44,499 nucleotides of DNA. It comes from Macrostomum lignano (taxonomy: Eukaryota). Shown piece by piece: positions 551 through 22,699 of this stretch; position 1 is the first letter of the stretch; each line of letters begins with the position of its first letter. The stretch is from contig NIVC01004485.1 in NCBI GenBank assembly GCA_002269645.1, positions 1 to 44,499 on the forward strand, written 5' to 3'. The notes under the pieces were generated by a model, which worked only from the letters and a program-made list of their open reading frames with translations, was not told the DNA's origin and did no database searches. The translations under genes were made by a program, and so were the position numbers.

Positions 551-3500
551 ATGGAACAAAGACTGACCCCAGATCAGATTCGACAACTTCTTGCAAACGA
601 GCGCGAACAGTTCAATCGATTACAAAGACAGGTTGAACAAATTGAACAGCGCCAAAGACAGCACCGTCGGCAAAGAGCAAGACAAAGACAAAGAGAGAGA
701 CAAAGAGAAAGAGAAATACAAGAACAACAAATAAAAGCATTAGCAAATGATATAAGGGCAGAATATGAAATGAAACGATTAATAGAAAAGGCCGAATATG
801 AAAAAAGAATAGCAGAGCTAGAAAAAAATCAAAAGAAAACCCAACGTCGGAAAACAAACATTAAATCGTCTGAACAACCACTAGAAGAATTTATTCGAGT
901 ATATAGGTTTGAACCAATGCAGAATGTCTTAGACTTTATTGAAACACAACTTTCAAACGGATATAGTGTTGAAATTACTAACGCGAGAGTACAATATTTT
1001 TATAACAAAACCGGCGATGATCGGGAAGAAATTAATCAATACTTAGCAACATTTTATAATATAAGTCAGTTTCAAGCTTGGTTTAAACATTTGGTAGAAA
1101 ACTATGATATGAATCTAAGCGTGTTTTCTGGAAGACTTAAAATGACACCAAACGTCATTACGATTAAACACGAAAGGTCAAAGCAAGGTATGGGCACAAA
1201 CGTCATGTGTGAAATTGCAGAGTATCAGGATGAGTATTGTTTCATACCTAGTGATGGTAATTGCTTCTATAAGTGTGTTAAATTTATTTATGGTGATAAC
1301 ACACCGTCTAAAGAAGAATATGGCGCTTGGTTGTACAACTCAAGAACTCAAAGAGGCATAATGACAAATTCAAGAATTGGAAAATTCAATGAGCATTTTA
1401 ATTTGAACATAGGTTTATGTATAACCCTAATAATCGGGGAATAGAACCAAAGTCACAAAGAGGCATCCACCACGATTGGTTATTAATAAATTACTACCAC
1501 GCAGCTGATTATCATATTGGACATTATTGCCTCATATCCAATAAACAACGAGGAATTGGTCTTGATTGGATAAAAGAGAATTATAAAGTAGTATTTAAAA
1601 ACCCAAAATCGGATAGTGTGCAAGAGATAAAAATGTTTAATACTCCGACAAATCCAAATAAATCAAACGTATACATATTTGATTTTGAAACATATTTAAA
1701 CGATAATCAACAAGCATGTCCGTATGCTGTTGGTCTTTTAAACTATAATGACTTTTCTAATAATTGTAACGAAAGCCCAGAGTCGATAAAGAAATTAACT
1801 AAGATCTTGATTTCAGATCGCGGATGTGATTTCAAAACAGACGGAACAAAAACGGACTGCGTTAGAAAAATGTTTAAATACCTTGGTTCAGTTAAGTCAA
1901 AAAAGATTGTTTTGATCGCCCATAACTCATCCCGCTTTGATTCTTATATACCACTATTTTGCAACATAAAACCAATTAAAATTCTTAAAACCCCCAGAGG
2001 AATATTATCAATAACTTTTGTTAATGATTATATGTCAAAAGAGGTATCAGCGTTTATAAACAAAGATAAAAAGAAGAAACATAAGGATTCAAAACAAACC
2101 ATTACGATGCTTTGTTCATATCAACACGCCTCAATGAGTTTAAAAAAGTTTTGTTCGTCAATGACAATTAGAGAGGATTTGCGCAAGACATCAATGGTGC
2201 ATGACATTACTGAGGACGATTATCTAGAACGGATTGATGAATGGTATGAATATTTACAATTTGATCTTATTTCTTTGTGTGCTTGTATTCATAAGTATAA
2301 CGAAATCGCATATGCAATTGGAGGCATGACAATGTTTGATACTCTTACATGTTCAAGTTTAACATTAAAATGTTGGTTTAAAGATTTTGTTAGAGTGGAA
2401 GACAAAATGAAAGAATACCTAAAGACAAAAGAAAAAACCAACTATATTAAGAAAGTCGAACAAATAATTTCTCCATTGAAAATAGAAGATTATTTTGACT
2501 TGTCTAAGCTTGAAAAAACGAAATATCAAACATTATTAAGAAAAGAATTTTCTGTTTACTCTCATATTGACCCCTATATAAGAAGATTTATGCGGGAGGC
2601 AGTCAAAGGAGGCAGAGTATTTGCACTAATAAATAAATACGAAAGCGAATGTTTTCAAACAATTGTAGACGTTGTAAAAGACCACTTAAAAACACCAACA
2701 GCCGACCCATGCGAGGTTATATCAACTTATCTCAAAAGCGATATGGAAGAAAAAAAGAAAATTGCAATTAAATTAAAAAACGAATTGGGTACTGTATCTG
2801 ATTGTTTAATGAACTTTGATGGGGTGTCATTGTACCCATCCGCCATGTCTGATAAAGATAGTGAATACCCAAGAGCAGAAAGTGGTAGGGTGTTTGATAT
2901 AAGCGAGGAAAAATATTTTTTGTCACAGTTTAATTCCCAAACGTTTCGACCAAAAACAGCGATTTTAAAGATTATGTATGAAAATCCTAACACCGTTTTT
3001 CTTCAGCATCTCCCATCTAAGGACAAAGAGAAATTTTATAATCCGGAGACAAAAGCAAACGAAACAAAAACATTAAATAGGTTCAGAAACGGAAAGGTAA
3101 TCGACACCCTTTGCTCGGTAGACATACAAGAAATCGTAAGAATGGGTGGTAAAATATTAAAGATATATAGTGGAATTGTATATGAGAAAAATTACGATTT
3201 CTCTCCGTTTCAGAATTATATTACAAATCTTTTTGAAATGAGAAAAAATGAGAAAAGTATTTAAAAAAGAAAATAATGAGGCGGGTTCTGAATTGATAAA
3301 AACACTATTAAATTCATTATATGGTAAAACAGTTCAAAGAGACATTACTTTCACAACACATCTCTGGAATTTGAATACATTAAAAAATGAATACGACGAC
3401 ACAATCAAGTCATATGAGAAAATATGTGACGACTTATTTTATGTAGAAAAAAAGAAAGACACGCAAGAATATATAGAAGACGACGACAATCCAACAACCG

Positions 3501-4144
3501 GACTTTGTTCTGCTCAATTAGGCATATTTATTTTAGCTCATTCAAGAAGAATTATGAATAATTTTATCACATCAATCGACGGATCAAAGAATCCAGAAAT
3601 TTATTACGGAGACACCGATTCATTATATATACATAAAAAACATTGGGATACATTAAATAAAAATGGGCACGTCGGAAATAATTTAAGTCAAGGAAAAAAC
3701 GATTATGGAGAGGGCGGAATTATATTCGGATATTTTATCGCTCCTAAAATTAAATATTGTCTTTTGTTGAAAGACGGTTTTATATTGGAAGAGAAAAAAA
3801 CATTTAAAGGTTGTGCAAACGATAGGGTTAATTTTGCATCGTTTAAAACTTTATATGATGGTCAATCAATAAAAGTAAATAATAACGCCCCATGGAAACG
3901 ATCGTTTGAAGGTGGTATAACAATTGGTCAAGGTTTTATATCAAAAACATATACACCATCAATTAATACTTATAAAAGAGAAAAACCGGATAAAAAAGGA
4001 ATTATGAAACCATTCTTTAAAAATTATTTTGATGACAAACCGGAACATGAACATACAATTGAATATTATAACAGCTTACTTTTTGATGTTGATTATAATT
4101 GTTTTGAGTTTGATATTGATGAACTAGCACTTATAAAAAACTAA
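551..4144 (+). pseudogene. polB: Protein-primed family B DNA polymerase (pPolB) with N-terminal coiled-coil/terminal-protein region and OTU-like protease domain, split into three ORFs (551-1444, 1417-3264, 3248-4144)
   Basis: ExoI YIFDFETY, ExoII AHNSSRFDSY, ExoIII YLQFD, (R)EAVKGGRV, motif A FDGVSLYPSAM, motif B KTLLNSLYGK, motif C YGDTDSLYI, APKIKY. Breaks: a -1 shift near 1415 and a tandem 10-bp duplication AATGAGAAAA (3237-3246/3247-3256). Repaired length is about 1190 aa. Confidence 0.97.
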
Positions 4145-6813: not shown

Positions 6814-8807
6814 TTAGCTGATAGCTACCGGCGGCCTTTCCAAATAAGGAGTAGATGGAAAAGTATAACCAAATGATGTACTACCACAAACTATTGCTCC
6901 ACGAATAAAATGCGCCGCATCCGCTCCTCCGGTTCGAGCACCAAACCCCATAAGCGTTCCGGATTTATCTAGATCTCCCCAAGTGCCACTATCATACGTA
7001 AAAACATTTTGCCCAATTAGTGTCAAAGAATCTCCAGCAACATTGTATGAGCTTAACTGATACCAAACTCTTTGATTAAGAATATTAATTTCAAAAAGAT
7101 GCCAATTGCCATTATCAATATTGGCATAGGTTACAGTTTGGTCGGCGTCATTTAGAACGTCATTGCGGACGGTTGCTCCGTCAGCTTTTTTATTACTCCA
7201 AAGCAAGCCGAATCTGTCATGCCATTCACTAGCAAACACTATTAAGCCGGCGTCGGTTGTTAAATCAGATCCATATTCCGTTGTTGGTCGTTGGTGGCAG
7301 TAAGCATAAAACCAAACGGCGTCTGCACCAGCTCCACCACCCGCAGCATTAGCAACTCGGAAATAGAAGGAGACAGAAACATTACGGAAATGGGTGAAAT
7401 TAAATTGTAACGCTCCATTGAGTCCAGCGCATTCGTCAGTAATTCTTGCGCCGTTTTGATAATCAATATAAATCGCATTTCCAACCATAGACCCAGTTGG
7501 AAAAATATCGCCAGCAGTTGTTGGGTTTTGATAGCCATTCCAATTACATATTACTGGCTCATATAAAGCGGCATCAATTGCCGGAATACCATCCAATTTA
7601 ATTTTATCATTAAAAGACATTCTACCGTCCGCCGTTTGTGTTACAACCGTATCGACATAACCTTTAGTCACAACAGATGTGTTATCGTTTATAGTAGATA
7701 TATTAGTAATTGTATTACCACCCATATCAATAGACTGATTTACTGCTCCTAAATTCAAATCAATAACGGTAAAAGTCTGCCTGTAAATCTGAAATGTTGA
7801 TAAGCCTGGATTGGTTGAACCCGATGTTGATGTAAGACAAAACAATTTGAAATATGAATATTCTTTATCAAAATTTTGTGTGACATTAAATGTTTGGGTT
7901 GAATTATTTAACTCCGCCGAACTCGCCGCCGGAATCAAAACATCATAACTTGTATTGTCATTACTTCCTTCAAATCGCCATGAAGCAGGGTGCTCGGTTG
8001 AGGGCGACGGTCTACCACGCAAATCAATTTTATAACACATTATCGCGGATGGACATTGGACTTGAATCCAGTAATCTGTTTGTGTTGCATTAGTTGCCCA
8101 ATCCGTTGCGTCGTCCCCATCAAAAGCTTTCCAACTTGCAAAGCTGGTTGTATTAAATGCCGAGCTTGCTGTGATCGCAAAACCGTTTCCACTCCAAGCA
8201 GCCATTGTTGGTACATGACCGGTTTGAACGGTTTGGAACCTATCTTGTTTTGGGGTTCCGCTCCCGACTATATTATCAACCTCGGTTTTGGTATAAGAAT
8301 CCGCGACATTTCGTTTCAAATTTAAGGAGTTATCTATTTGAGTTTGACTATAGGAATCGCTTATATCTCTTTTTAAATTTAACGAATTATCAACCTCGGT
8401 TTTGGTATAAGAATCGGTTATATCTCTTTTTAAATTTAATGAATTATCAATTTCCGTTTTGGTATATGAATCTGCCACATTCCGTTTTAAATTAAGTTCG
8501 AAATCAACTTCGGCTTGACTATAAGAATCTAATATATTACGTTTTAAATTTAATGAATTATCTATTTCCGTCTTGCTATATGAATCCGCAGTATTGCGTT
8601 TTAAATTTAATGAATTATCGATTTGAGTTTTGGTATAGGAATCTGCAACATTCCGTTTTAAATTTAATTTAGTATCGATTTCACTTTTTTATAACCTTCG
8701 TCTTTATTTATATATCGGTTGTCTCCAAATGTAACACTTATTCCACTCGATTCTCCGCCGCCAGTTCTTGAAGTTCCGTTCCATGAGGGTGTTCCACTAA
8801 ATAACAT
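6814..8807 (-). CDS. Putative receptor-binding fibre/spike: 19-aa repeat shaft, discoidin (F5/8 type C)-like domain, stalk motif and C-terminal ConA/L-type-lectin-like domain; one frameshift near 8685
   Basis: The likely start is ATG at 8807 (MLFSGTPSW...), with one A lost in the run at ~8685-8690. Then come 8 x DSYTKTEIDNSLNLKRN repeats; WKAFDGDDATDW...YWIQVQ...WRFEGSND (discoidin-like); MGGNTITNI...TKGYVD (fibre stalk motif); and GADAVWF...WHLFEI...GFGARTGGADAAHFI (legume-lectin-like). Confidence 0.75.
8270..8700 (-). repeat. 57-bp coding tandem repeat (about 8 copies) encoding the fibre shaft
   Basis: The units ADSYTKTEIDNSLNLKRDI / TDSYTKTEVDNSLNLKRDI / SDSYSQTQIDNSLNLKRNV etc. differ largely by synonymous or conservative changes. 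Confidence 0.9.
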
Positions 8808-10976: not shown

Positions 10977-11022
10977 CGAAAGATATTACTCGCATACTCA
11001 ATACTCACAGAAGACAAATCCA

Positions 11023-11928
11023 ATGACGGACAGTGCAAGCAACAATTCCGCTCCTACACCACCTACAACCACGCAAGCCGCACCAAGTTCGGCCGCACCA
11101 GTGGTTACAACTGCAGTAGGAAACGCCGCCGACACCGCTATAGTCTCCCTGGCCCACCTGAAGCTGCCAATCTTCTATCGCAACAACCCGGAAGCATGGT
11201 TCCTCACGCTGGAGGCCCAGTTTATGCTCAACAGGGTGACCAACGAGACCGCCAAATTTTACCACCTAGTCTCTCATCTACCGGAGGATATCGCGGCTCT
11301 GCACTTGTCCGCTCAGACTCCAAAACAGTACGAACAACTGAAATCAGCGATTACATCGACTCTGCAAAAGTCCAAGCAGGAGAAGGTTTCGGAAGTATTG
11401 CAAGTCTCGGACCTCGGAGGAGACAAGCCATCAATCTTCATGCGCAAACTCCGGAGCAAGATGGAGCAGTGCCAGATACAGCCCGACGAGGATCTCCTCA
11501 AGGCCACTCTGATGCGCTGTCTTCCACAGGACCTTCGTATCGCACTGTCGGGATTCCAACAGCAGTCATCCCAGCAAATTTCCGAGATTGCTGACTCGAT
11601 GTTGGTCGTCAGAGGCCTTAGCTCTCCACCGCCAGCGACAGTTTGCCCAATTCAGCAGGCCGGTGCAGATCGGACACCCCAACAGCGCTTTGAGCAAGCT
11701 CCACACCGACAAGCACCTGGTAAGCCCACTGGAACAGACCCATTTAAGCCTGGCCAACGCCCCGTCGTTTGCCGCTCACACCTCTACTATGGCCGCCGTG
11801 CTCGGTCGTGTCGCCCCTGGTGCCAGTTTCCCAAGGACAGCTCGCGTCTGATCCGAGTGCTGCATCCCAATGAAAAAACGCCATCTCAGTCGCGTTCATC
11901 ATCACCTTCTCGACAGCCGGAAAACTAA
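11023..11928 (+). CDS. gag: Gag (301 aa)
   Basis: [16 protein letters not shown]-terminal motif and C-terminal [18 protein letters not shown] (CHCC) motif. Confidence 0.93.
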
Positions 11929-14900
11929 ATCGCACTGCGACCGAGGTCGCGGTGCGCAGTGCCGAGATACCATCGACCACCTGTTTGGAGTTAGATGTTA
12001 AAATCAACAATACCTACAGCAAGTTTCTTGTGGATACCGGAGCCTCGGTTTCCATTGTTCCACCTCACCTCGTTAACGCACTCGTTCAAGATACAAACGT
12101 TCGTTTAATTACTGCTACCGGAGCCGCCATACCAGTTCGCGGGTCGGTCCTACTGGATGTCTCAATCCGCGGTTTGCGTCGCGCCTTCCAGTGGACCTTC
12201 CTCGTGGCGTCAGTGGTGAAACCCATAATTGGTTACGATTTCTTGGCTCACCATGGGTTAGTTGTCGATTGTCAGCGCAAACACGTTCGAGACTCAGAAA
12301 CAGGACTGTCTACTGTTACCTTGTCAATTTCAAATGTTCATTGTGGCCCATTCACTGTGTCGGTAGAACTGCCACCCAACCTGGATTCTCGGACGAGTAC
12401 GCTGTTGACAAAGTTTGCAGATTGTTTTTCTTTCGTTGAAGGCGGAGCCCTTCCGCCAGCTTCAGAGGTCAAGCATGACACTGTTCACCGGCTAGACACT
12501 GGTAGTGGACAACCAATTCACTTGCGACCCCGGCAACTGCACCCTGCAAAACTACAGGCTGCAAAGCAGGAGTTTCAGCAGCTAATCGATGCTGGCTACC
12601 TCAGACCTTCCTCAAGCGCTTGGGCGTCACCCCTCCACATGGCACCCAAGGGAGCTGGCTGGCGTCCGTGCGGTGACTATCGCGAATTGAACAAACGAAC
12701 AAAGCCGGACAACTATCCGGTTCCACACATTCAAACATTCACTCGGTACCTACACGGAAGCACTGTGTTTTCAAAGTTAGACCTTGTTCGCGCCTTTCAT
12801 CAAATTCCAGTCGCCGAAGAGGATATTTGCAAAACCGCTATCACCACACCGTTTGGATTGTTCGAGTACACACGCATGCCCTTCGGCCTGAGGAATGCAG
12901 CACAAACATTTCAACGCTTCATCGACTCTGTTTTTCACGGACTGTCATTCGTCATCTCTTACATCGATGATGTCCTGATATTCTCAAAGACTCGTGAGGA
13001 CCACTACTCGCATTTGGAACAAGTTTTGGACCGCCTAAGAACACACGGCCTACAGGTTCATTTGAAGAAGTGCGAATTCTTTCAGTCCGAGGTAGATTTC
13101 CTTGGCCATCGCGTGACTCCTGAAGGAATAAAACCTCTCCAGAAGAAGATCCAAATAATCACTGACTGGCCGACACCCACGGATTCGAATGCACTTCGGC
13201 GCTTCCTCGGTGTCGTCGGTTTCTACCGTCGATTCGTTCCCAACTTTGCCGACTGCATCTGTCCGCTGCAAGACCTACTCACTGCATCACTACAGTCAGC
13301 AGGAAACTTCCAATGGACAGAGCAGCATCAGAAATCTTTCGAAAACATCAAACAAGCTCTCTCAGAGAGACTACTGCTGCATCATCCGGACCCCAACTGT
13401 ACTGCGTACCACCTGTACACTGATGCCTCAGCCGACTGTGTTGGTGCCGTTCTGCATCAAACCTCTTCAACCGGAACGTCACCTCTTGGCATGTTCAGCA
13501 AGAAGTTGTCGTCATCTCAAAGGATGTACAGCACGTTCGACCGAGAACTACTCGCGGCGTACCTGGCAGTGTTGCACTTCCGCAGCCTCATTGAAGGACT
13601 GAGCGTGACCTTGTTCACCGATCATAAACCACTAGCTCAGGCCTTCCACGCCAATCGCACCACTACGTCAGATCGCAATCAGCGCTACTTGACCGTCTTG
13701 TCCGAGTACGTGGCAGATGTCCAGTACATTCGCGGTGCAGACAACGTAATAGCTGATGCCCTTTCTCGACTGCCTGACTTCCCAGTGAATGATCACGTGT
13801 CCAACATCGCAACAGTCGCTGTAGTCGCTGCCCCATCAAGCCAATTCCCTGTTGATCTGCCCAGTATCGCTGAAGCACAACGACCGGAGTCGTTCTCAGC
13901 TGCACCAAATATTCGATCGTATTCTCTGGACAAAGACGTCGTCGTTTGGTGTGAGACGTCAACGCCGTATCCTCGCCCGATCATTCCGCCATCCCTCCGC
14001 GACGCCGTGATTGCTTCCTTCCATCGACTTGGTCATTTCGGCTACCGTAAAACAGCAAAACTCATCACAGAACGTTACTTTTGGCCCGGAATGCGCAAGT
14101 CCATCAAGACCTACTGCTGGAACTGCCAGGACTGCCAACGGAGTAAAGTCACTCGCCACACTGTCTCCCCGCAACAGGCCTTCGCATTACCATCAAATCG
14201 CTTTGAGGCGGTACACATCGATATTGTGGGACCACTTCCACCAGCTAATGCTACCACCTTTGGCCACCAGTCTGCTCGCTACCTTCTCACGATGGTCGAC
14301 CGCTCGACTGGCTGGCTAGAAGCTACACCACTGGAATCAATAACCGCGGAAGTAGTCGCCCATGCATTCGTCTCGTCTTGGGTCTCGCGCTACGGAGTGC
14401 CACTGTATGTAATCACTGATCGGGGGCGCCAGTTCGAATCAGAATTCTTTCACTCGGTCTCGTCATCAATTGGTTTTCATCGATTACGCACAACGGCCTA
14501 CCACCCTCAAACCAATGGCAGGGTCGAGCGAGCCCATCGCACCCTGAAGACGATGCTACGTGCTCGAGGCAATGACTGGCTGACAGACCTACCTGTGGCT
14601 CTCCTCGCGATGCACGTCGCACCTGACGACCAAGGAATATCACCGTTCACCAGGGTTACGGGCGAGCTTCCGATGGTTCCGCGCATTCTAACTTCTGAAC
14701 CACTCGCCCCAACGGACATTCGGACACGGCTGCAGGAACTGCTGACAGAGTTACCGAGTCCACACGCGAAGACGCACGAACCACGGAGCTACGTACCCAA
14801 GGACCTGGAAATGGCTGAATTCGTCTGGGTTCGGGTCGATCGCGTGCGGTCGCCGCTCGAGGCGCCGTACTCAGGGCCGTATCGCGTGAAACAGCGAACT

Positions 14901-15068
14901 GACAAGTTCTTCGTTATTTTCCTACCGTCAGGCAACACCGAATCTGTCTCTATCGATCGCCTCAAGCCGGCGCGACTTTCGCTTCCGAAGTCGGCTGTTC
15001 AAGTCGGCTGGCAGGGTCGAGCGAGCCCATCGCACCCTGAAGACGATGCTACGTGCTCGAGGCAATGA
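11919..15068 (+). CDS. pol: Pol polyprotein (protease, RT, RNase H, integrase), probably reached by a -1 frameshift; C-terminus altered by an internal duplication
   Basis: [10 protein letters not shown]; RT YIDDVLI; RH YTDAS...DRELLA...TDHKPL; IN zinc finger H-H-C-C, HIDIVG / ITDRGRQFE / VERAHR, and GPY motif. The frame is open from 11919 ([14 protein letters not shown]...). Confidence 0.96.
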
Positions 15069-15494
15069 CTGGCTGACAGACCTACCTGTGGCTCTCCTCG
15101 CGATGCACGTCGCACCTGACGACCAAGGAATATCACCGTTCACCAGGGTTACGGGCGAGCTTCCGATGGTTCCGCGCATTCTAACTTCTGAACCACTCGC
15201 CCCAACGGACATTCGGACACGGCTGCAGGAACTGCTGACAGAGTTACCGAGTCCACACGCGAAGACGCACGAACCACGGAGCTACGTACCCAAGGACCTG
15301 GAAATGGCTGAATTCGTCTGGGTTCGGGTCGATCGCGTGCGGTCGCCGCTCGAGGCGCCGTACTCAGGGCCGTATCGCGTGAAACAGCGAACTGACAAGT
15401 TCTTCGTTATTTTCCTACCGTCAGGCAACACCGAATCTGTCTCTATCGATCGCCTCAAGCCGGCGCGACTTTCGCTTCCGAAGTCGGCTGTTCA
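14516..15494 (+). repeat. Tandem duplication (493-bp period) of the integrase 3' region
   Basis: 14516-15001 is repeated at 15009-15494 with a 7-bp linker AGTCGGC. Track ORF 15046-15624 is the second copy plus the original C-terminal tail. Confidence 0.93.
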
Positions 15495-15804
15495 GCCGGC
15501 CGCGAACTCGCTGCCGGAAAAAGCCGCCAAACCAAAGGAACCGGTGGACTCATCACCTCCTAGAGCGACCTCTAGCGGCCGCCGAGTCCAATTCCGACGC
15601 CATAATGATTACATTTATTATTAACCTTGTAATGTATAACGTCTACTGACTGCTGTTCCAATGTTCTCAATATTTCTCAATGTTCAACCCTTCATATAAA
15701 ATTTAGCTCGTATTTCAACTGTATAACCGCTTCGTTTCAATAATTTAAGCCATTCCACCATTTTATAATTCAGTTACAGTCTCTTTTCCCCGTGCTCCGC
15801 AATT

Positions 15805-15818: not shown

Positions 15819-15992
15819 TATGGGTATTTTGTTGTACTTTTTATTTGCAACTCAGTTTGTCATAAATTACCATAGACTAATTTCCTTTTACAGTTCTTTC
15901 TCGCAGTTAAGTTTCTCGCCCCAAGCCCTCTCGTCTTTAACTCATAAAATATATTGCAATTCGAATCTAAGTCAAGTTGTAGTTTCACTACA
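15819..15992 (+). repeat. 3' LTR (174 bp)
   Basis: Appears identical to 10784-10957; followed by the TSD CCCT. Confidence 0.95.
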
Positions 15993-16288
15993 CCCTCAAT
16001 GTCAGAAAGTTTGAATTTTGGTTCATCGTCGTCCTCATATTGCTCATATGCTCTTAACATTCTAAATAAAATATCTTTTTTTAGTTTGTTTTTTAATCCA
16101 TGTTTAAGAAATTCATAATATTTTATTCTAGGTCTATTTGTATATATTATTAAATTATTATAATCTAACATTCCATTGGTTGTTAATAAATCATAAACAA
16201 AGTGTGTTTTTCCTTTACCTGATCCTCCAACAACTAAACAAAGAAAAGGGTCGTTGGGAAATATTTTATTATGTTTTGGCTTTACCAT
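15993..16288 (-). pseudogene. A32/FtsK-like packaging ATPase, N-terminal part
   Basis: Walker A CLVVGGSGKGKT. Excising the retrotransposon and one CCCT restores LSDIEG|LCRET and a 256-aa ORF. Confidence 0.93.
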
Positions 16289-16308: not shown

Positions 16309-17790
16309 CTAACTTTTTCCTATGGGGGCGTCCTGAACAACGGTGCCGTCGGCTTTAGCAATCGCCATATACTCCTCTAGAAACAATGCGTGGGCGTCTA
16401 CTGCCTGATTTCCAGTTTTATTAATCTCCAACATATAATTCAAACCAATATTTGCTACATTTGCTTTCTGTGCGGTTAGATCAAAAACAACCACGGGGTG
16501 AATGTTTAGAAACTCTGTGGGAGTATATTGAGGAATGGCGTAGGCTTCGTTTTTGACGTAATCCTGATAATATTTTATAAAATCATTAACATCATTATTT
16601 CCAACATTTAGATTAAGGGGGTTTTTAACAGGATAATATTGATCATCAACCTGCAGTCGGATGTTCTGAAGATTAAATGTGTTAATCGCCGAAAGCGCGT
16701 TGTCACTTGCGGTGGCTGCTTGAGCTGCTACATCACCAGATTGAAGCCAATATAAATCACCGTTTCCTCTTTTGCTAGTTCTGTTTGGTATTTTAAACCA
16801 AATAAAAATATACCTCACCCGACGTTTTGTTTGTATGATTTGCCACTGGAATGAATCCTGATTGTTATTAATGGTTCGCATAAAGTGGCGGCGATTCAAA
16901 TAAAATATATCCTGGTCTAACATTATCTGATCATCAATATGTTTTAAAAGCGGAGCAGTTACCTCGATAGTTGGCACAACTAATTTAATCGAAACAATTC
17001 GAACTGCAATATCGGTTGAGGTTGAACTTCCAAAAAGTATCCTGGGCTGATATCCACCAGATATTTGCAGTTGTACCCCAAATTTTAATCCCTTCCATAC
17101 CCGATTTGGTGAGAAAAACCCAAATAGTGGAAAGATTGAAAAGTCTTCCTCATAAGCGGTTGCTGTGGTTAAAACCGCGACTGGGAATTTATTCCGACGG
17201 TCTATAAAACCAGTGTTTATATTTTTGGTGTTGGTTAGATCCGTTACAACCGGAACTATATTATTATTTAAATAATTAATAAGAGCTGCGGTGTCTGCGC
17301 CAGCTGCTGGTGTTATTTGGGGAAAAATCCATGGTCTACCATCTCCCTTATCAGGCATCCATCCAACGTTATCACCAACCTGTTTTGATAAATATGTATA
17401 ATTTAAATGTTTCAAAACTCCATTAATCTCTGCTGGGTTTGTAGCCGTCTCAACCTCGGCTCCGTTAATGGTTAGTTGTGCTTGGGAAAAACATTTATAA
17501 AACCAATCATTTTCTATAATAATGCCAGCGCGATCAGCGATATCGGGGGCTGTAAGGGCTGTTCCATCGTTTCTGGTATACAACCACCTAACTCGGAAAA
17601 ACGCATTTTTCATATCCAATATGCTGCTGGTTGCACCAATGTCAAAAGTTACTGTTCCCGTTGTAAAGTTATTTGAATTATCGCTTGTTGGTTGGGTGTA
17701 ATTTAAATCTCTTGATCTGACCTCATTGATATACTGTCGTTGTTTTTTGAAATGAAATTTATCACTCCAAATGGTTTTTGTCTCGGCCAT
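16309..17790 (-). CDS. Major capsid protein (double jelly-roll, Polinton PY/hexon-like), 493 aa, intact
   Basis: Size, beta-rich pattern (VTFDI...LDMKNAFFRVR...ENDWFYKCFSQAQLTINGAEVE...) and position beside the ATPase and penton. Confidence 0.88.
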   Translation of the reverse strand: MAETKTIWSDKFHFKKQRQYINEVRSRDLNYTQPTSDNSNNFTTGTVTFDIGATSSILDMKNAFFRVRWLYTRNDGTALTAPDIADRAGIIIENDWFYKCFSQAQLTINGAEVETATNPAEINGVLKHLNYTYLSKQVGDNVGWMPDKGDGRPWIFPQITPAAGADTAALINYLNNNIVPVVTDLTNTKNINTGFIDRRNKFPVAVLTTATAYEEDFSIFPLFGFFSPNRVWKGLKFGVQLQISGGYQPRILFGSSTSTDIAVRIVSIKLVVPTIEVTAPLLKHIDDQIMLDQDIFYLNRRHFMRTINNNQDSFQWQIIQTKRRVRYIFIWFKIPNRTSKRGNGDLYWLQSGDVAAQAATASDNALSAINTFNLQNIRLQVDDQYYPVKNPLNLNVGNNDVNDFIKYYQDYVKNEAYAIPQYTPTEFLNIHPVVVFDLTAQKANVANIGLNYMLEINKTGNQAVDAHALFLEEYMAIAKADGTVVQDAPIGKS

Positions 17791-19085: not shown

Positions 19086-20648
19086 AGGTGGCTTGTTGGA
19101 TGTTCAAAAAGGATTAACAAGCTTACCAAGCGTTTTTACTAGTGGGAAGTATACAAATGAATTACACATTCCAGGGTACTCGTTTGCAGGTTATCCGTGG
19201 CCTGAGTGAGGAAGTCAATGTCCTTGCTAGTCACTATTAGTGGCGACATCTTCAAATTGCGTGAAACCCGTCATACAGCTTCAAGTCCACTTCAATTGAG
19301 AAATCTTTTGAAGGAACAGAGGTAACTCCTCTTCCCAAAGGTAACAAGCTTGAAGACAAGGTGGCAATGCGCAGCCAAGCTCCTAAGTCCGTCCGGTGGC
19401 CGATATGGAGAAGGTTCAGAGAGCAGACGGAGATGGGTGGTAATTTAGCCGTTTAAGGTGTGCTCCAGCCTCTATCGAAAGATTGGGGGTAAACTACCCG
19501 GGACAAGATTGGATTTGAGATTAAATCCAGATGGAACTCCAAAAGCAGATTCAATTTCCATTAACGGAATTGATTGGTTAGCATATTATCATGACTTAGC
19601 ATACAGAGATGCTGATAAGAACTCTCCTGAGGAAGCATTAAGATTAAAGCATGAAGCCGATAGAAAAATGATTGAAGGATTAGATAATCTGCAAGAATTG
19701 TCGGTTGGCCAAAGATTAACTCGGTGGATGGTTAAAAAGATTTTGCAGTCTAAAGTTAAATTTGGTTTGGGAATTAATTATAATCAACATGGAAATAATT
19801 GTGTTGAGTGTTTGCTATTAAGTGGTGGTGGGTTAAGTTCTGATGAGGCAAAGATTCTTCACAAAGAATACCGAAAACCGAAATTTTACAGAAAGATCAT
19901 GAACTTTAAAAAGAATGAAATTTGGTATGCTGATTTAATGGCTATGCCGTCCGATCGGGGATATAAATATATTTTAACTATATTAGATGGTTTTACTCGA
20001 TATGCGTGGGCTGTTCCTTTGAAGTCCAAAAAAGGAGACGAGGTTGCTTCTGCTTTTAGAAGTATTGGAGAAAAAAGTGAACGTTTATGTGTTGATGAAG
20101 GAAAGGAATTTTATAATCCACATATGTATAAATTATATCATTTTGAAAAAGGAAAAGAAAGGAAAAAGGACGCTAATGGGGAGTATATTAATAAGATTTA
20201 TTCTATTTATGGCGAAAGCAAAAACGCTTTAATAGAAAGATTTAATCGAACTTTAGGTAAGAAATTGTGGTTTGAGTTTAGGCTTAATGGTAACCAAAAA
20301 TGGGTAAAGATATTATTAGACGTAGTGAAAGATTATAATAATTCATTTCATTCGGCTATAAATATGACTCCGCAACAAGCTTATAACAATCCTGAAAAAG
20401 TTAAAGTTACTTTTGGAGAATTTGAAAAAAAGAAAAATAAACCTTTTAAAGTTGGTGATTCTGTTTATATCTATAAATGGAAAGATAAGTTTGAAAAGGG
20501 AAGAAAAGGATATTAGAAAATAAGTGAGAAATTTTCTGTTAGTAAAGTTTTAAATACAAATCCTACAACCTATATCATTGCTGATAAAGATGGTGAAGAA
20601 ATATTGGGTTCGTTTTATGAAAGCCAATTACTTAAGGCAACAAGGTAG
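19036..20648 (+). pseudogene. Parvovirus-type phospholipase A2 domain fused to a Polinton RVE (DDE) integrase; split by a 305-bp insertion and a TAG
   Basis: ATG 19036 gives ...ELHIPGYSFAG|PGTRLDLRL...YYHDLAY...HEAD (PLA2 Ca-loop and HD). Integrase motifs WYADL, LCVDEGKEF, IERFNRTL. The TAG at 20514-20516 sits at a conserved Trp and the frame continues KISEKF...PTTYII.D..GEEILGSFYESQLLK to 20648. Repaired length is about 435 aa. Confidence 0.92.
19191..19495. other. Unclassified 305-bp insertion
   Basis: More GC-rich than its flanks; splits the Gly codon of FAG|PGT; removing it restores the frame. No TSD or TIR evident. Confidence 0.8.
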
Positions 20649-20811: not shown

Positions 20812-21111
20812 TTACAGATTATCTGAATCACTAGTTTCATAAGAACTATTTGTTGATTCGGAATCTGTTGACCTAACCTCCCAATCCTCGGAATTTAAAT
20901 AATCTCCAAGTTGAAATATTAACTCACCCTCTTGTTCTAAATCATACAAACCATCTAACTCTAAAGGATAAAGTTTTAGTTCGTGCTTGTCGTCGTATTT
21001 TAAATAAACTTCCTCAATTATTCCATTCAATATGTGCTGTTTTATTATCTCTGCATTTTTAGCAACGGTCTCAAAAGTATCACTTACTGAAAAGTTGTAA
21101 ACTCGGTTCAT
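20812..21111 (-). CDS. Small acidic hypothetical protein (99 aa)
   Basis: Intact ORF with CTAAAAATG start; last gene before the terminal non-coding region. Confidence 0.6.
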   Translation of the reverse strand: MNRVYNFSVSDTFETVAKNAEIIKQHILNGIIEEVYLKYDDKHELKLYPLELDGLYDLEQEGELIFQLGDYLNSEDWEVRSTDSESTNSSYETSDSDNL

Positions 21112-21124
21112 TTTTAGTAACAGA

Positions 21125-21448
21125 AAAAGACCCTTCGCGCCTACGGCGCGGGCGACGGGTTTGTGTGTGTTTGTGTGTGTTTGGATGCTTTTTGAATACG
21201 ATACAAAATTGCCAGCAAACTAAAGCGAACGACGAGAGCGAATTCTCAGTATTCAAAGAGAATTGATCATTATCAAGTTGAAATGAAGTGTGTTTGAGCG
21301 GAATGAAGCGAGGATGAGCGGAGCGAGTTGAGCGGAGTGAAGACGAGCGATAATGGAGTGAAAAACGATTCATTTCAACTTGATAATGATCAATTCTCTT
21401 TGAATACTGAGAACGGTTTGCTGGCAATTTTGTATCGTATCTACTACT
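21125..21448. repeat. Right terminal non-coding region (probable TIR) containing an internal inverted repeat
   Basis: Perfect arms 21196-21220/21416-21440 (25 bp) and 21243-21287/21369-21413 (45 bp); ends in CTACTACT. TIR status is inferred because the left end is not visible. Confidence 0.8.
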
Positions 21449-22699
21449 GTTGCGTGAGGCACCGAAGCCGACAGCTGACGGCCGGAGCTGCGGCAACTGC
21501 GGCTCAGCGGCGTGTGATAGATACAATAAATGCATATAGCATGCACGATAAGCAATTATTTAGGCCCTAGACAAACCTACTTGGAGCGTTCGGAGATTTT
21601 AAAAATATTGGCCCTAATCGCCTATCGCCGGTCGGCGAGTCCTACCAGTCTTTCTCCAATAGCCGCAGGTACAGTACAAGAAAAGAAAGAGCACAGGGGA
21701 AGACGAACCGAATGGATTTAGAGAGTGATAATCCTAGCAAGAATGACTAATTTTGATTAACTTGACGATTTAATTAGATTTAATAAAGTTACAAGATTCA
21801 ATGCGATTCGCGGCGCAGATGATTTGAACGAACAATAATAACGATACAACGATTAGTAATAATTAATTACGCAATTGGCAAGCGGATCTCAGCTGAGGAA
21901 GAAGAGGAACCGAACACGGGACCACGGAGAAGACTCCTAACCCCTGGCCTAAACCAGAACCTACATTCAAACGAGAGCCCTGCCGAATTGACCGTTCAAC
22001 GGAGCACTGACTAAATTCTATCAGCGCTGCCCTTCAGTGTGACACTGAGGCCCTCTGGGTCGAGGCCACGTACTTGGTCAAATCCGACAGTCTCTACCTA
22101 GACCGCGCTTAATAGCGACGACTTCAGACAAAAATTTGCCGTAGACGTTACGCTACAAGACTGAAGCGGTCGGGCAGGGAGCAAAACACGGACCCGGGTG
22201 ACGAACTCAAAAACAAAAACCAAAACCAAACCAAAACCAAAAACAAGGCAAAACGGCCGGGAAGCTGGAACAAAACCAAAGCCGGGGAAAGAAGGGAAAA
22301 ACAGAAGTGAGATCCGACCGCCAAACACACTTTCATATATAGTCAGAGTCAAACCCCTCAAACCCCCCCCCCTCAAGCCGGGTGGTGGTCGTCTGGCCGG
22401 CCGCTCGCTAAGCTGAATTGCACTGTGCCCGCGGCGCCGGGTAGACTTGGATTTTGCCACGTGCCAGGGTCCAGGCCGGTTCTGATTGGCTGGCCGCGCA
22501 AAGCTGGGGTTCGCAGAAAAACTCAACCCTCCGCTGAGTCACAGTTGGCGTCTGACTTCTAGCCTGTTTACGCAAAATTGATTCTAACTAACAAGAAAAA
22601 AGTACATTGAAAACGCGTGACTATTTTGAAGCAAAATAATAATTAACAATATAAAAACTAATACAATCAATTATCTAACAGAATACAACGCAAAAGATG

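Follow-up and report, generated by a model that had tools for sequence, protein, structure and literature searches.

Kapitonov and Jurka reportedly proposed in 2006 that Polintons form a racket in which one TIR pairs with the other, and we know of no case in which the exit of a Polinton from the chromosome or its replication has been observed. Parvovirus termini are fold-back hairpins of 100-250 nt with bulges, and they occur in flip and flop orientations. The racket model is likewise one of TIR-TIR pairing as relayed in the accessible parts of PMC4046053 and 10.64898/2026.07.28.741278, and panhandles are without direct evidence even in adenovirus and PRD1 (PMC11886824).

Palindromes in TIRs are already known from virophages, PLVs and casposons. 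Halocafeteria virophages and PLV subtype 4 are small rve-integrating dsDNA viruses whose TIRs hold a palindrome next to the TSD, and a role of the hairpin in replication has been proposed; in the accessible text of this preprint (10.64898/2026.07.28.741278) the virophage and PLV palindromes are about 52 nt long, as detected under a gap limit of 10, and belong mostly to protist elements without pPolB. Casposons, self-synthesizing elements of prokaryotes with a Cas1 integrase, also have palindromes inside their TIRs, to which the accessible part of PMC4046053 gives one sentence without analysis. In Streptomyces telomeres (Tpg/Tap) the ~300-nt 3' strand folds on itself with sheared G·A pairs and templates terminal-protein priming; several short palindromes are bound by Tap, and the overhang results from bidirectional replication (PMC4513846, accessible part). 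PLV end modules have been proposed to turn over together with their genes (PMC11296320, in the text accessible). One palindrome is marked in a figure of a 2026 preprint, and the words hairpin and palindrome are absent from the adintovirus paper. Our search of the literature on Polinton termini, with the founding Polinton papers, Repbase and supplements outside its scope, found no covarying intra-TIR fold-back or G·A stem.

The element described here has the PolB, rve integrase, ATPase, capsid, TIRs, AG...CT ends and 6-bp TSD of a Polinton/Maverick. Unlike in the racket model, each TIR carries its own fold-back of 100-300 nt, which covaries, is swappable among sister elements and is missing from some of them. 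The element also differs from the Halocafeteria elements, as far as the accessible text describes these, in being an animal element with pPolB, in its arms of 80-90 nt around an insert of 65-140 nt, and in showing covariation and a predicted G·A stem. By analogy of function Streptomyces telomeres are the closest system, although there is no homology and no Tap-like gene was identified in the Polinton; on the Polinton side the likeness lies in sequence signatures (strand bias, G·A motifs). Parvovirus hairpins are similar as terminal fold-backs of 100-250 nt with bulges, and one of the end types described below (type C) has two small ears, but the Polinton is without flip/flop, no Rep/HUH gene was detected, and it has a protein-primed polymerase and integrase ends. 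We did not find the predicted G·A rod or the swapping of modules in print.

The Polinton and the fold-back at its end

AG...CT termini and a 6-bp TSD are criteria for Polintons and Mavericks. In the window (the whole 44.5-kb stretch of DNA that was analysed), positions 1-21448 belong to such an element, with PolB, A32-like ATPase and rve integrase domains and a likely jelly-roll capsid gene. Its protein-primed PolB, rve integrase, packaging ATPase, TIRs, AG...CT termini, TSD and size all agree with Polinton/Maverick, for which a range of 15-25 kb is given (PMC6431247). The element ends at 21448, where the initial annotation had placed the viral terminus: directly past the terminal ACTACT the flanks of sister copies differ. 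A whole copy of the same insertion, 17.4 kb long, is found in G000:C581. Its two TIRs are identical across 339 bp and bordered by a TSD, and a 6-bp TSD is present in 5/5 paired elements (the C581 copy and 4/4 others). The features of the window are:

551-4144, plus strand: protein-primed PolB region, three overlapping ORFs in the assembly (DNA_pol_B_2, E 2.5e-7, on the third ORF, 3248-4144)
11000-15800, plus strand: Gypsy-type retroelement inserted in the window copy, limits approximate (RT, RNase H and integrase domains; GC shift)
15860-16288, minus strand: A32-like packaging ATPase, apparently truncated by the retroelement insertion (Pfam Pox_A32, E 0.005, under the curated cut-off)
16309-17790, minus strand: likely double-jelly-roll major capsid protein (protein-atlas 0.98 to viral clusters)
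19668-20516, plus strand: rve integrase gene, ~0.6 kb inward of the TIR (Pfam rve, E 6e-7)
21110-21448, no strand: Polinton/Maverick TIR, 339 bp (identical terminal run at both ends of the C581 insertion)
21136-21150, plus strand: small GC hairpin, the anchor upstream of both unrelated modules, types A and B (position and sister modules)
21151-21195, plus strand: G/T-rich, C-poor spacer (21 T, 18 G, 3 C, 3 A), its length differing among copies
21196-21220, plus strand: inner arm of the outer stem, pairing with 21416-21440 (in 25 sister ends 96% of cells paired, 4/25 pairs changed on both sides)
21221-21242, plus strand: 22-nt bulge, conserved in the alignment, lost in L236
21243-21287, plus strand: inner arm of the inner stem, perfect over 45 bp in the window copy
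21296-21361, plus strand: predicted non-canonical stem in the loop (score 45, 0/500 shuffles)
21369-21413, plus strand: outer arm of the inner stem
21416-21440, plus strand: outer arm of the outer stem
21441-21448, plus strand: unpaired 3' tail, closing with the Polinton terminal repeat; last 6 nt invariant, length dependent on subfamily
21449-21454, plus strand: one 6-bp copy of the TSD (same 6-mer at both C581 ends)

The atlas clusters of the capsid candidate contain the DJR Pfams PF21738/PF16903 in 10-24% of their members, with a recognition value under the threshold of the tool and no direct Pfam match, and the candidate has a weak tblastn match to the corresponding ORF of L182, a metagenomic Polinton. 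An adenovirus-type protease (Peptidase_C5) was not found among the window ORFs scanned, and ~1 kb of the element falls beyond the window. The element also contains a 463-aa ORF (6814-8205) that includes an F5/8 type C (discoidin) domain and may encode a receptor-binding fibre. In the flank there is an AMOP domain, and a host repeat near the insertion site (21520-21745) has a contig depth far above that of the surrounding flank in all four runs.

The outer and inner stems are the two best inverted repeats in the window. Their arms are exact reverse complements over 25 bp (21196-21220 with 21416-21440) and 45 bp (21243-21287 with 21369-21413), as the initial annotation had described, and the asymmetric internal loop that it had noted (22 nt against 2 nt at 21414-21415) and the central loop of 81 nt (34 G, 26 A, 13 T, 8 C) also agree by position. 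The small GC hairpin is present as well, one base to the left of where it had been placed. Folded as DNA, 21190-21448 gives -75.8 kcal/mol (z -16.7), a value that 0/200 shuffles equal, and the opposite strand of the same segment gives -72.2 kcal/mol (z -16.0). Positions 21225-21239 of the bulge could pair as a small side arm that contains one tandem G·A, a weak signal whose score is equalled by 14/500 shuffles.

The identity of the two C581 TIRs places the same structure at the other end of the element, and the 253 terminal bases of each end are a conserved self-complementary module. Judging from the sequence, the hairpin very probably forms physically, on the strand with the 3' end. The structure had at first been called a panhandle, a term that normally stands for TIR-TIR pairing; the fold-back is real, but it is a hairpin within the TIR. 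TIR-TIR pairing (-453 kcal/mol) is far more stable than the two hairpins (-86 and -83 kcal/mol), so the hairpin would win only kinetically.

Sister ends and the predicted loop helix

A search of the genome found at least 41 full or partial matches to the end, with 79-100% identity (40 of the 238 candidates were scored), and the 30 best were retrieved for comparison. All 30 end at the element terminus and no TSD surrounds the type A module, the module type of the window, which argues against the independent MITE that the initial annotation had named as an alternative. Our alignment A3 comprises 25 distinct type A ends and leaves out identical copies, the truncated L024, ends with internal deletions (L223, L225, L226, L229, L230), the whole-arm copy L236, and L085 and L221. 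Across 51 named pairs, 95.0% of the cells are paired, versus 87.7% when shuffled and 35-43% in slid controls. Both sides have changed in 17/51 pairs, with 83 double-change cells against 24 in shuffles (0/500), counts that are inflated by relatedness and refer to a structure derived from one member. RNAalifold independently gave double changes in 22/65 pairs. Compensatory changes in sister copies, which had been proposed as a check, are therefore seen. The fold-back is missing in two lineages of the same genome.

The loop is the least variable part of the module (column variation 0.036, versus 0.15-0.16 in the inner arms; 26 rows). In most sisters the inner stem consists of two helices (14 and ~12 bp) separated by an internal loop, and the longest perfect stem, which reaches 45 bp in the window copy, is at most 27 bp in 76/83 modules. 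The features first described, a perfect stem of 45 bp and a tail of exactly 8 nt, thus hold for the window copy, but as traits of a subfamily and not of the family. L236 has an inner arm that complements its outer arm exactly over 74 bp and has lost the bulge, and in three ends of type B, a second module described below, perfect runs span 52-76 bp (L031, 55 bp; L273; L274, 76 bp). We read the long perfect stems, that of the window included, as traces of templated copying from arm to arm. Such copying implies that strands fold back or switch template in vivo. For the same reason covariation by itself is no proof of selection, since templated copying can yield compensatory changes unselected.

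Among 16 sites with the loop word that had been picked as unpaired, seven were rejected as unrelated repeats or as sites without an end (L227, L228, L231, L232, L233 twice, L234). At L019:1850-2137 (G000:C2506:77710-77997; also C2140:22655) a second type A module of another subfamily lies directly past a complete terminus, which is possibly a snapshot of the addition or replacement of an end module. L235 and L236 (G000:C1680:230136 and 247495) are inverted type A ends of different subtypes, 17.3 kb apart and with unmatched flanks, and represent a recombinant or two elements.

The purine-rich loop had been taken for an open tract of repeats. In our model it is instead a G·A-paired stem, in which 63/66 nt of 21296-21361 close in 20 steps without mismatch around a GTT tip at 21327-21329 (five tandem sheared G·A, two GGA/GGA zippers, one GAA/GATA, ten Watson-Crick and two G·T steps). 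The scorer considers a single hairpin built from Watson-Crick, G·T, tandem GA and GNA zipper steps; this grammar is post hoc and shuffles were scored identically. The window loop scores 45, and the maxima of mono-, di-, tri- and tetranucleotide shuffles are 16, 26, 33 and 33 (0/500 each). The loop of L018 scores 36 (0/500 in each shuffle class) and that of L218 27 (at most 1/500), and the opposite strand scores 0 under this grammar, partly by construction. The RNAalifold output for the loop consists of isolated symmetric pairs, and the 2x2 and 3x3 gaps between them are all GA/GA or GNA/GNA. Eight columns vary in more than 10% of rows, and five of these are among the seven middle positions of zippers (p 1.2e-4, the rows not being independent). 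The type A loop is therefore predicted to close via sheared G·A tandems and GNA zippers, with hardly any open single strand left.

Tandem G·A pairs are also found in RNA, where they are common. The guanine zipper of human satellite III and GCGNAGC mini-hairpins likewise have sheared G·A tandems and G-N-A zippers whose middle base is free, on the purine strand only, and the Polinton loop also contains a GCGNAGC. According to the accessible parts of two papers, the intercalated base of a G·A-bracketed zipper tolerates changes and the pyrimidine strand is without clear melting (PMC11014236), and GCGNAGC hairpins are much more stable in DNA than in RNA and occur at single-stranded phage origins (PMC13037366). 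Unlike those of satellite III, as far as these texts describe them, the Polinton motifs are non-repetitive, are arranged symmetrically across 66 nt and sit on top of a long Watson-Crick stem at the viral end. Long DNA helices of G·A zippers that are backed by evolutionary evidence are rare, and the type A tip would be one. Standard folding programs draw the G·A stem as an empty loop, so that elements like it may have escaped notice elsewhere. In a type A variant found on three contigs with a shared flank (L226, L229, L230), a short Watson-Crick hairpin replaces half of the G·A loop.

Exchangeable and optional end modules

We examined 60 of the 118 family-1 integrase matches, mostly picked for the absence of the type A loop word, so that the outcome is not a ratio: 54 loci end in a type B module, one in type A, and five are without a complete end. 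Type B is unrelated to type A in sequence and has the same geometry, and it is found on copies with a 93-94% identical integrase. After the same GC-hairpin anchor the type B module spans 258-308 nt, with ~80-bp arms, a stem paired through the last base in 51/51 unique modules and a loop of 80-143 nt that has a mean of 0.5 C in ~106 nt. In a further 20 stretches additional versions of the stem were seen, and two ends had a tail of 4 nt. Under the G·A grammar the loops of type B score no better than shuffles (14/39 loops tested); they have 2-6 G-runs, with G4Hunter-like maxima of 0.96-1.8. A 203-bp type B mini-element with a 6-bp TSD (L258:306-508 and L266; G000:C158 and C808) is either a solo module or an extreme internal deletion.

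On a DNA tree of the integrase, with 72 rows of which 56 are unique, the A/B label requires 11 changes versus a shuffled mean of 14. At least six changes are forced by well-supported branches, and L018 (type A) and L074 (type B) have zero-length branches. From these scattered labels it follows that modules are exchanged, or that bodies recombine beneath them. No A/B hybrid element was seen when 13 stretches were checked for the far end of type A elements, one of which had an end (type A). In every pair seen the two ends are of matching type, and panhandle-type exchange between the ends could therefore still take place.

In family 2 (integrase 59%), seven of 20 loci carry a third module, the type C hairpin of 99 nt, which is paired to, or close to, the last base and has two small ears; in four loci no terminus was found. 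The other nine form family 2b, whose body is 97-99% like that of 2a and where no terminal fold-back was found (z -1.3 and 0.3). Family 2a has a second hairpin of ~110 nt located ~190-300 nt inward of the end (region L054:402-700). Eight loci of more distant integrase families, identified by their integrase and starting with AGTAGT, have short local hairpins only (four folded, z -0.4 to -5.1), and L240/241, L246/247 and L250-257 showed no clear terminus. The module is exchangeable and optional: sisters carry unrelated sequences of the same shape, and some lineages carry none. Family 2b and the distant families speak against a universal requirement for the fold-back.

Outside this genome, a hairpin of 150 nt directly precedes ACTACT at a candidate end of the metagenomic Polinton L182 (PolB, ATPase, protease). 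This hairpin is the one fold-back at 54 TACTACT sites in 95 outside loci, which are mostly fragments without ends, most of the sites not being ends; it scores 29 against 5-11 at the other 53. With the window integrase alone as query, no viral contig matched. A 184-nt fold-back with inward terminal-repeat-like words (L115:4657-4840) lies 450 bp past a Polinton-type integrase on a viral contig, and is an end or an inserted element. The outside locus L114 was rejected as a likely inverted-duplication artefact. A 77-nt palindrome in L050 was also rejected as a fourth end type, being the start of an unrelated high-copy element inserted in that Polinton. This high-copy element (L206-L217, ~position 1503; e.g. 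G000:C1051:283327-283411) starts with an imperfect palindrome of 81 nt whose ends are similar to Polinton termini; of its 101 candidates, the 40 scored are all 99-100% identical. A near-perfect palindrome of 2.5 kb in host DNA beside a Polinton-like end (L238:1-2465) is genuine or an assembly fold-back.

The modules might also be neutral, either a captured MITE-like piece or a replication accident, whose symmetry template switching maintains and which has spread as copies recombined. The likeness of type B to a mini-element with Polinton ends, the frequent arm copying, the at least six changes of module type on the integrase tree and the lineages without a module would fit this. We nevertheless find it most unlikely, given that the module has no TSD around it and carries the element's own terminus, and that at least four unrelated sequences share the same geometry. 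In type A, moreover, the loop is the most conserved part and varies at structurally free positions, and the bulges persist though copying can erase them.

The type A tail is 8-12 nt long in 16/21 modules, the remaining five being local-alignment artefacts or degraded; it is 1 nt in L218 and 3 nt in L219, and in type B it is 0 or 4 nt. With a tail of 0-12 nt across natural variants, the proposal that the fold is designed to leave exactly CTACTACT free does not stand: the 8-nt tail is not a conserved design. Retroviral-type integrases cut the 3' strand only. The fold-back might serve as an integrase substrate, making the 3' junction double-stranded on a single strand still joined to the host, where the rve integrase would nick it and the element would be copied out without TIR pairing. 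Stems of types B and C reproduce the whole terminal duplex, its last base included, and contain the terminal repeat a second time internally, and the strand bias reported below fits cutting of the 3' strand only. The Polinton excision model also requires a paired end on single-stranded DNA (via the accessible part of PMC4046053). We consider this reading unlikely: the unpaired 8-12 nt of type A would be a poor duplex end, the solo 203-bp piece with its TSD is equally an internal deletion, and family 2b integrates without a hairpin.

The orientation of the loops is constant. The loop points the same way in at least 66 distinct type A ends, and likewise in 51/51 type B modules, whose loops are C-poor on the same strand. 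Three matches to the flipped pattern all lie at ends that also match the normal pattern, which leaves 0 true flips versus at least 66 normal ends and gives no sign of the flip/flop once suggested among copies. At the MVM left end, resolution preserves orientation, and to such resolution the flip count is blind. The count bears on a parvovirus-like self-priming, in which the snapped-back 3'-OH would prime synthesis, in type A after trimming of the tail. Types B and C do offer a fully paired 3' end with template ahead, type A has a tail of 1-12 nt there, and whole-arm copying shows that fold-back synthesis or repair occurs. The same model is proposed for the TIR palindromes of Halocafeteria virophages and PLV in the accessible text of 10.64898/2026.07.28.741278, which however ties them to non-pPolB elements. 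Self-priming is in our judgement quite unlikely here, in view of the constant loops, the protein-primed PolB, the retained terminal repeats of slide-back type and a Pfam scan with no HUH/Rep gene among 22 window ORFs.

On the strand ending 3'-ACTACT, G·T versus A·C site types number 16:4 in type A (p 0.012) and 24:13 in type B (p 0.10). Such a bias would stem from selection on pairing or from deamination of an exposed single strand, either of which indicates this strand. The same strand is the sense strand of the neighbouring integrase, and a G·T/G·U bias together with tandem G·A pairs, common in RNA, might suggest outward transcripts ending in a long hairpin that acts as a terminator, Dicer substrate or decoy. 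The region is covered by contigs of two presumed-RNA runs, which show neither strand nor level. An RNA function seems very unlikely to us, as three unrelated modules keep their stem in register with the end of the DNA, arm copying occurs at the DNA level, DNA stabilizes zipper and GCGNAGC motifs far better than RNA does (PMC13037366, accessible part) and the best Rfam match is sub-threshold (26.1 bits versus a gathering value of 79).

A proposed role in protein priming

The initial annotation had suggested that each end can fold without pairing to the other TIR and may hold an origin or packaging signal. The capacity of each end to fold by itself is upheld by the presence of the structure at both ends, the covariation, the unrelated modules of sister lineages and the lack of a MITE insertion. 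Because the fold-back is registered to the terminus in unrelated modules, biased in strand and composed of DNA-type motifs, we assign it to the 3' end of a single-stranded intermediate. The terminal hairpin is a putative self-folding 3' end that might restore a duplex origin at which terminal-protein priming could do without the other TIR, a role for and against which we see the balance as level. A single strand would be released by strand displacement or by looping-out from the provirus, and the strand ending 3'-ACTACT would fold into a rod-shaped DNA hairpin. The released 3' end would snap back at once, shielding the end and offering the polymerase a template and a non-template strand, with the tip frayed or fully paired. 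Terminal protein and the protein-primed polymerase would then start the second strand on the duplex end of the hairpin, and the other TIR, 17 kb off, would not be needed.

In phi29, according to the accessible part of PMC4150772, a duplex origin outperforms a single-stranded one, and activity rises when terminal bases are unpaired, 17-fold at 6 nt and 2.4-fold at 12. A non-template strand protruding past the template end markedly lowers activity there, and any hairpin origin has such a strand.

It could further be, though we hold this to be somewhat doubtful, that animal Polintons use interchangeable self-folding ssDNA 'telomere' modules, one of them a 250-nt rod with a selected 66-nt G·A/zipper tip, and that these modules and not TIR-TIR rackets start protein-primed replication or excision. 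One genome holds four natural end types (frayed, fully paired, short hairpin and none) on near-identical bodies, so that the question of end structure is testable with short natural substrates. If the proposal is true, end structure would be a swappable replication strategy inside one virus family.
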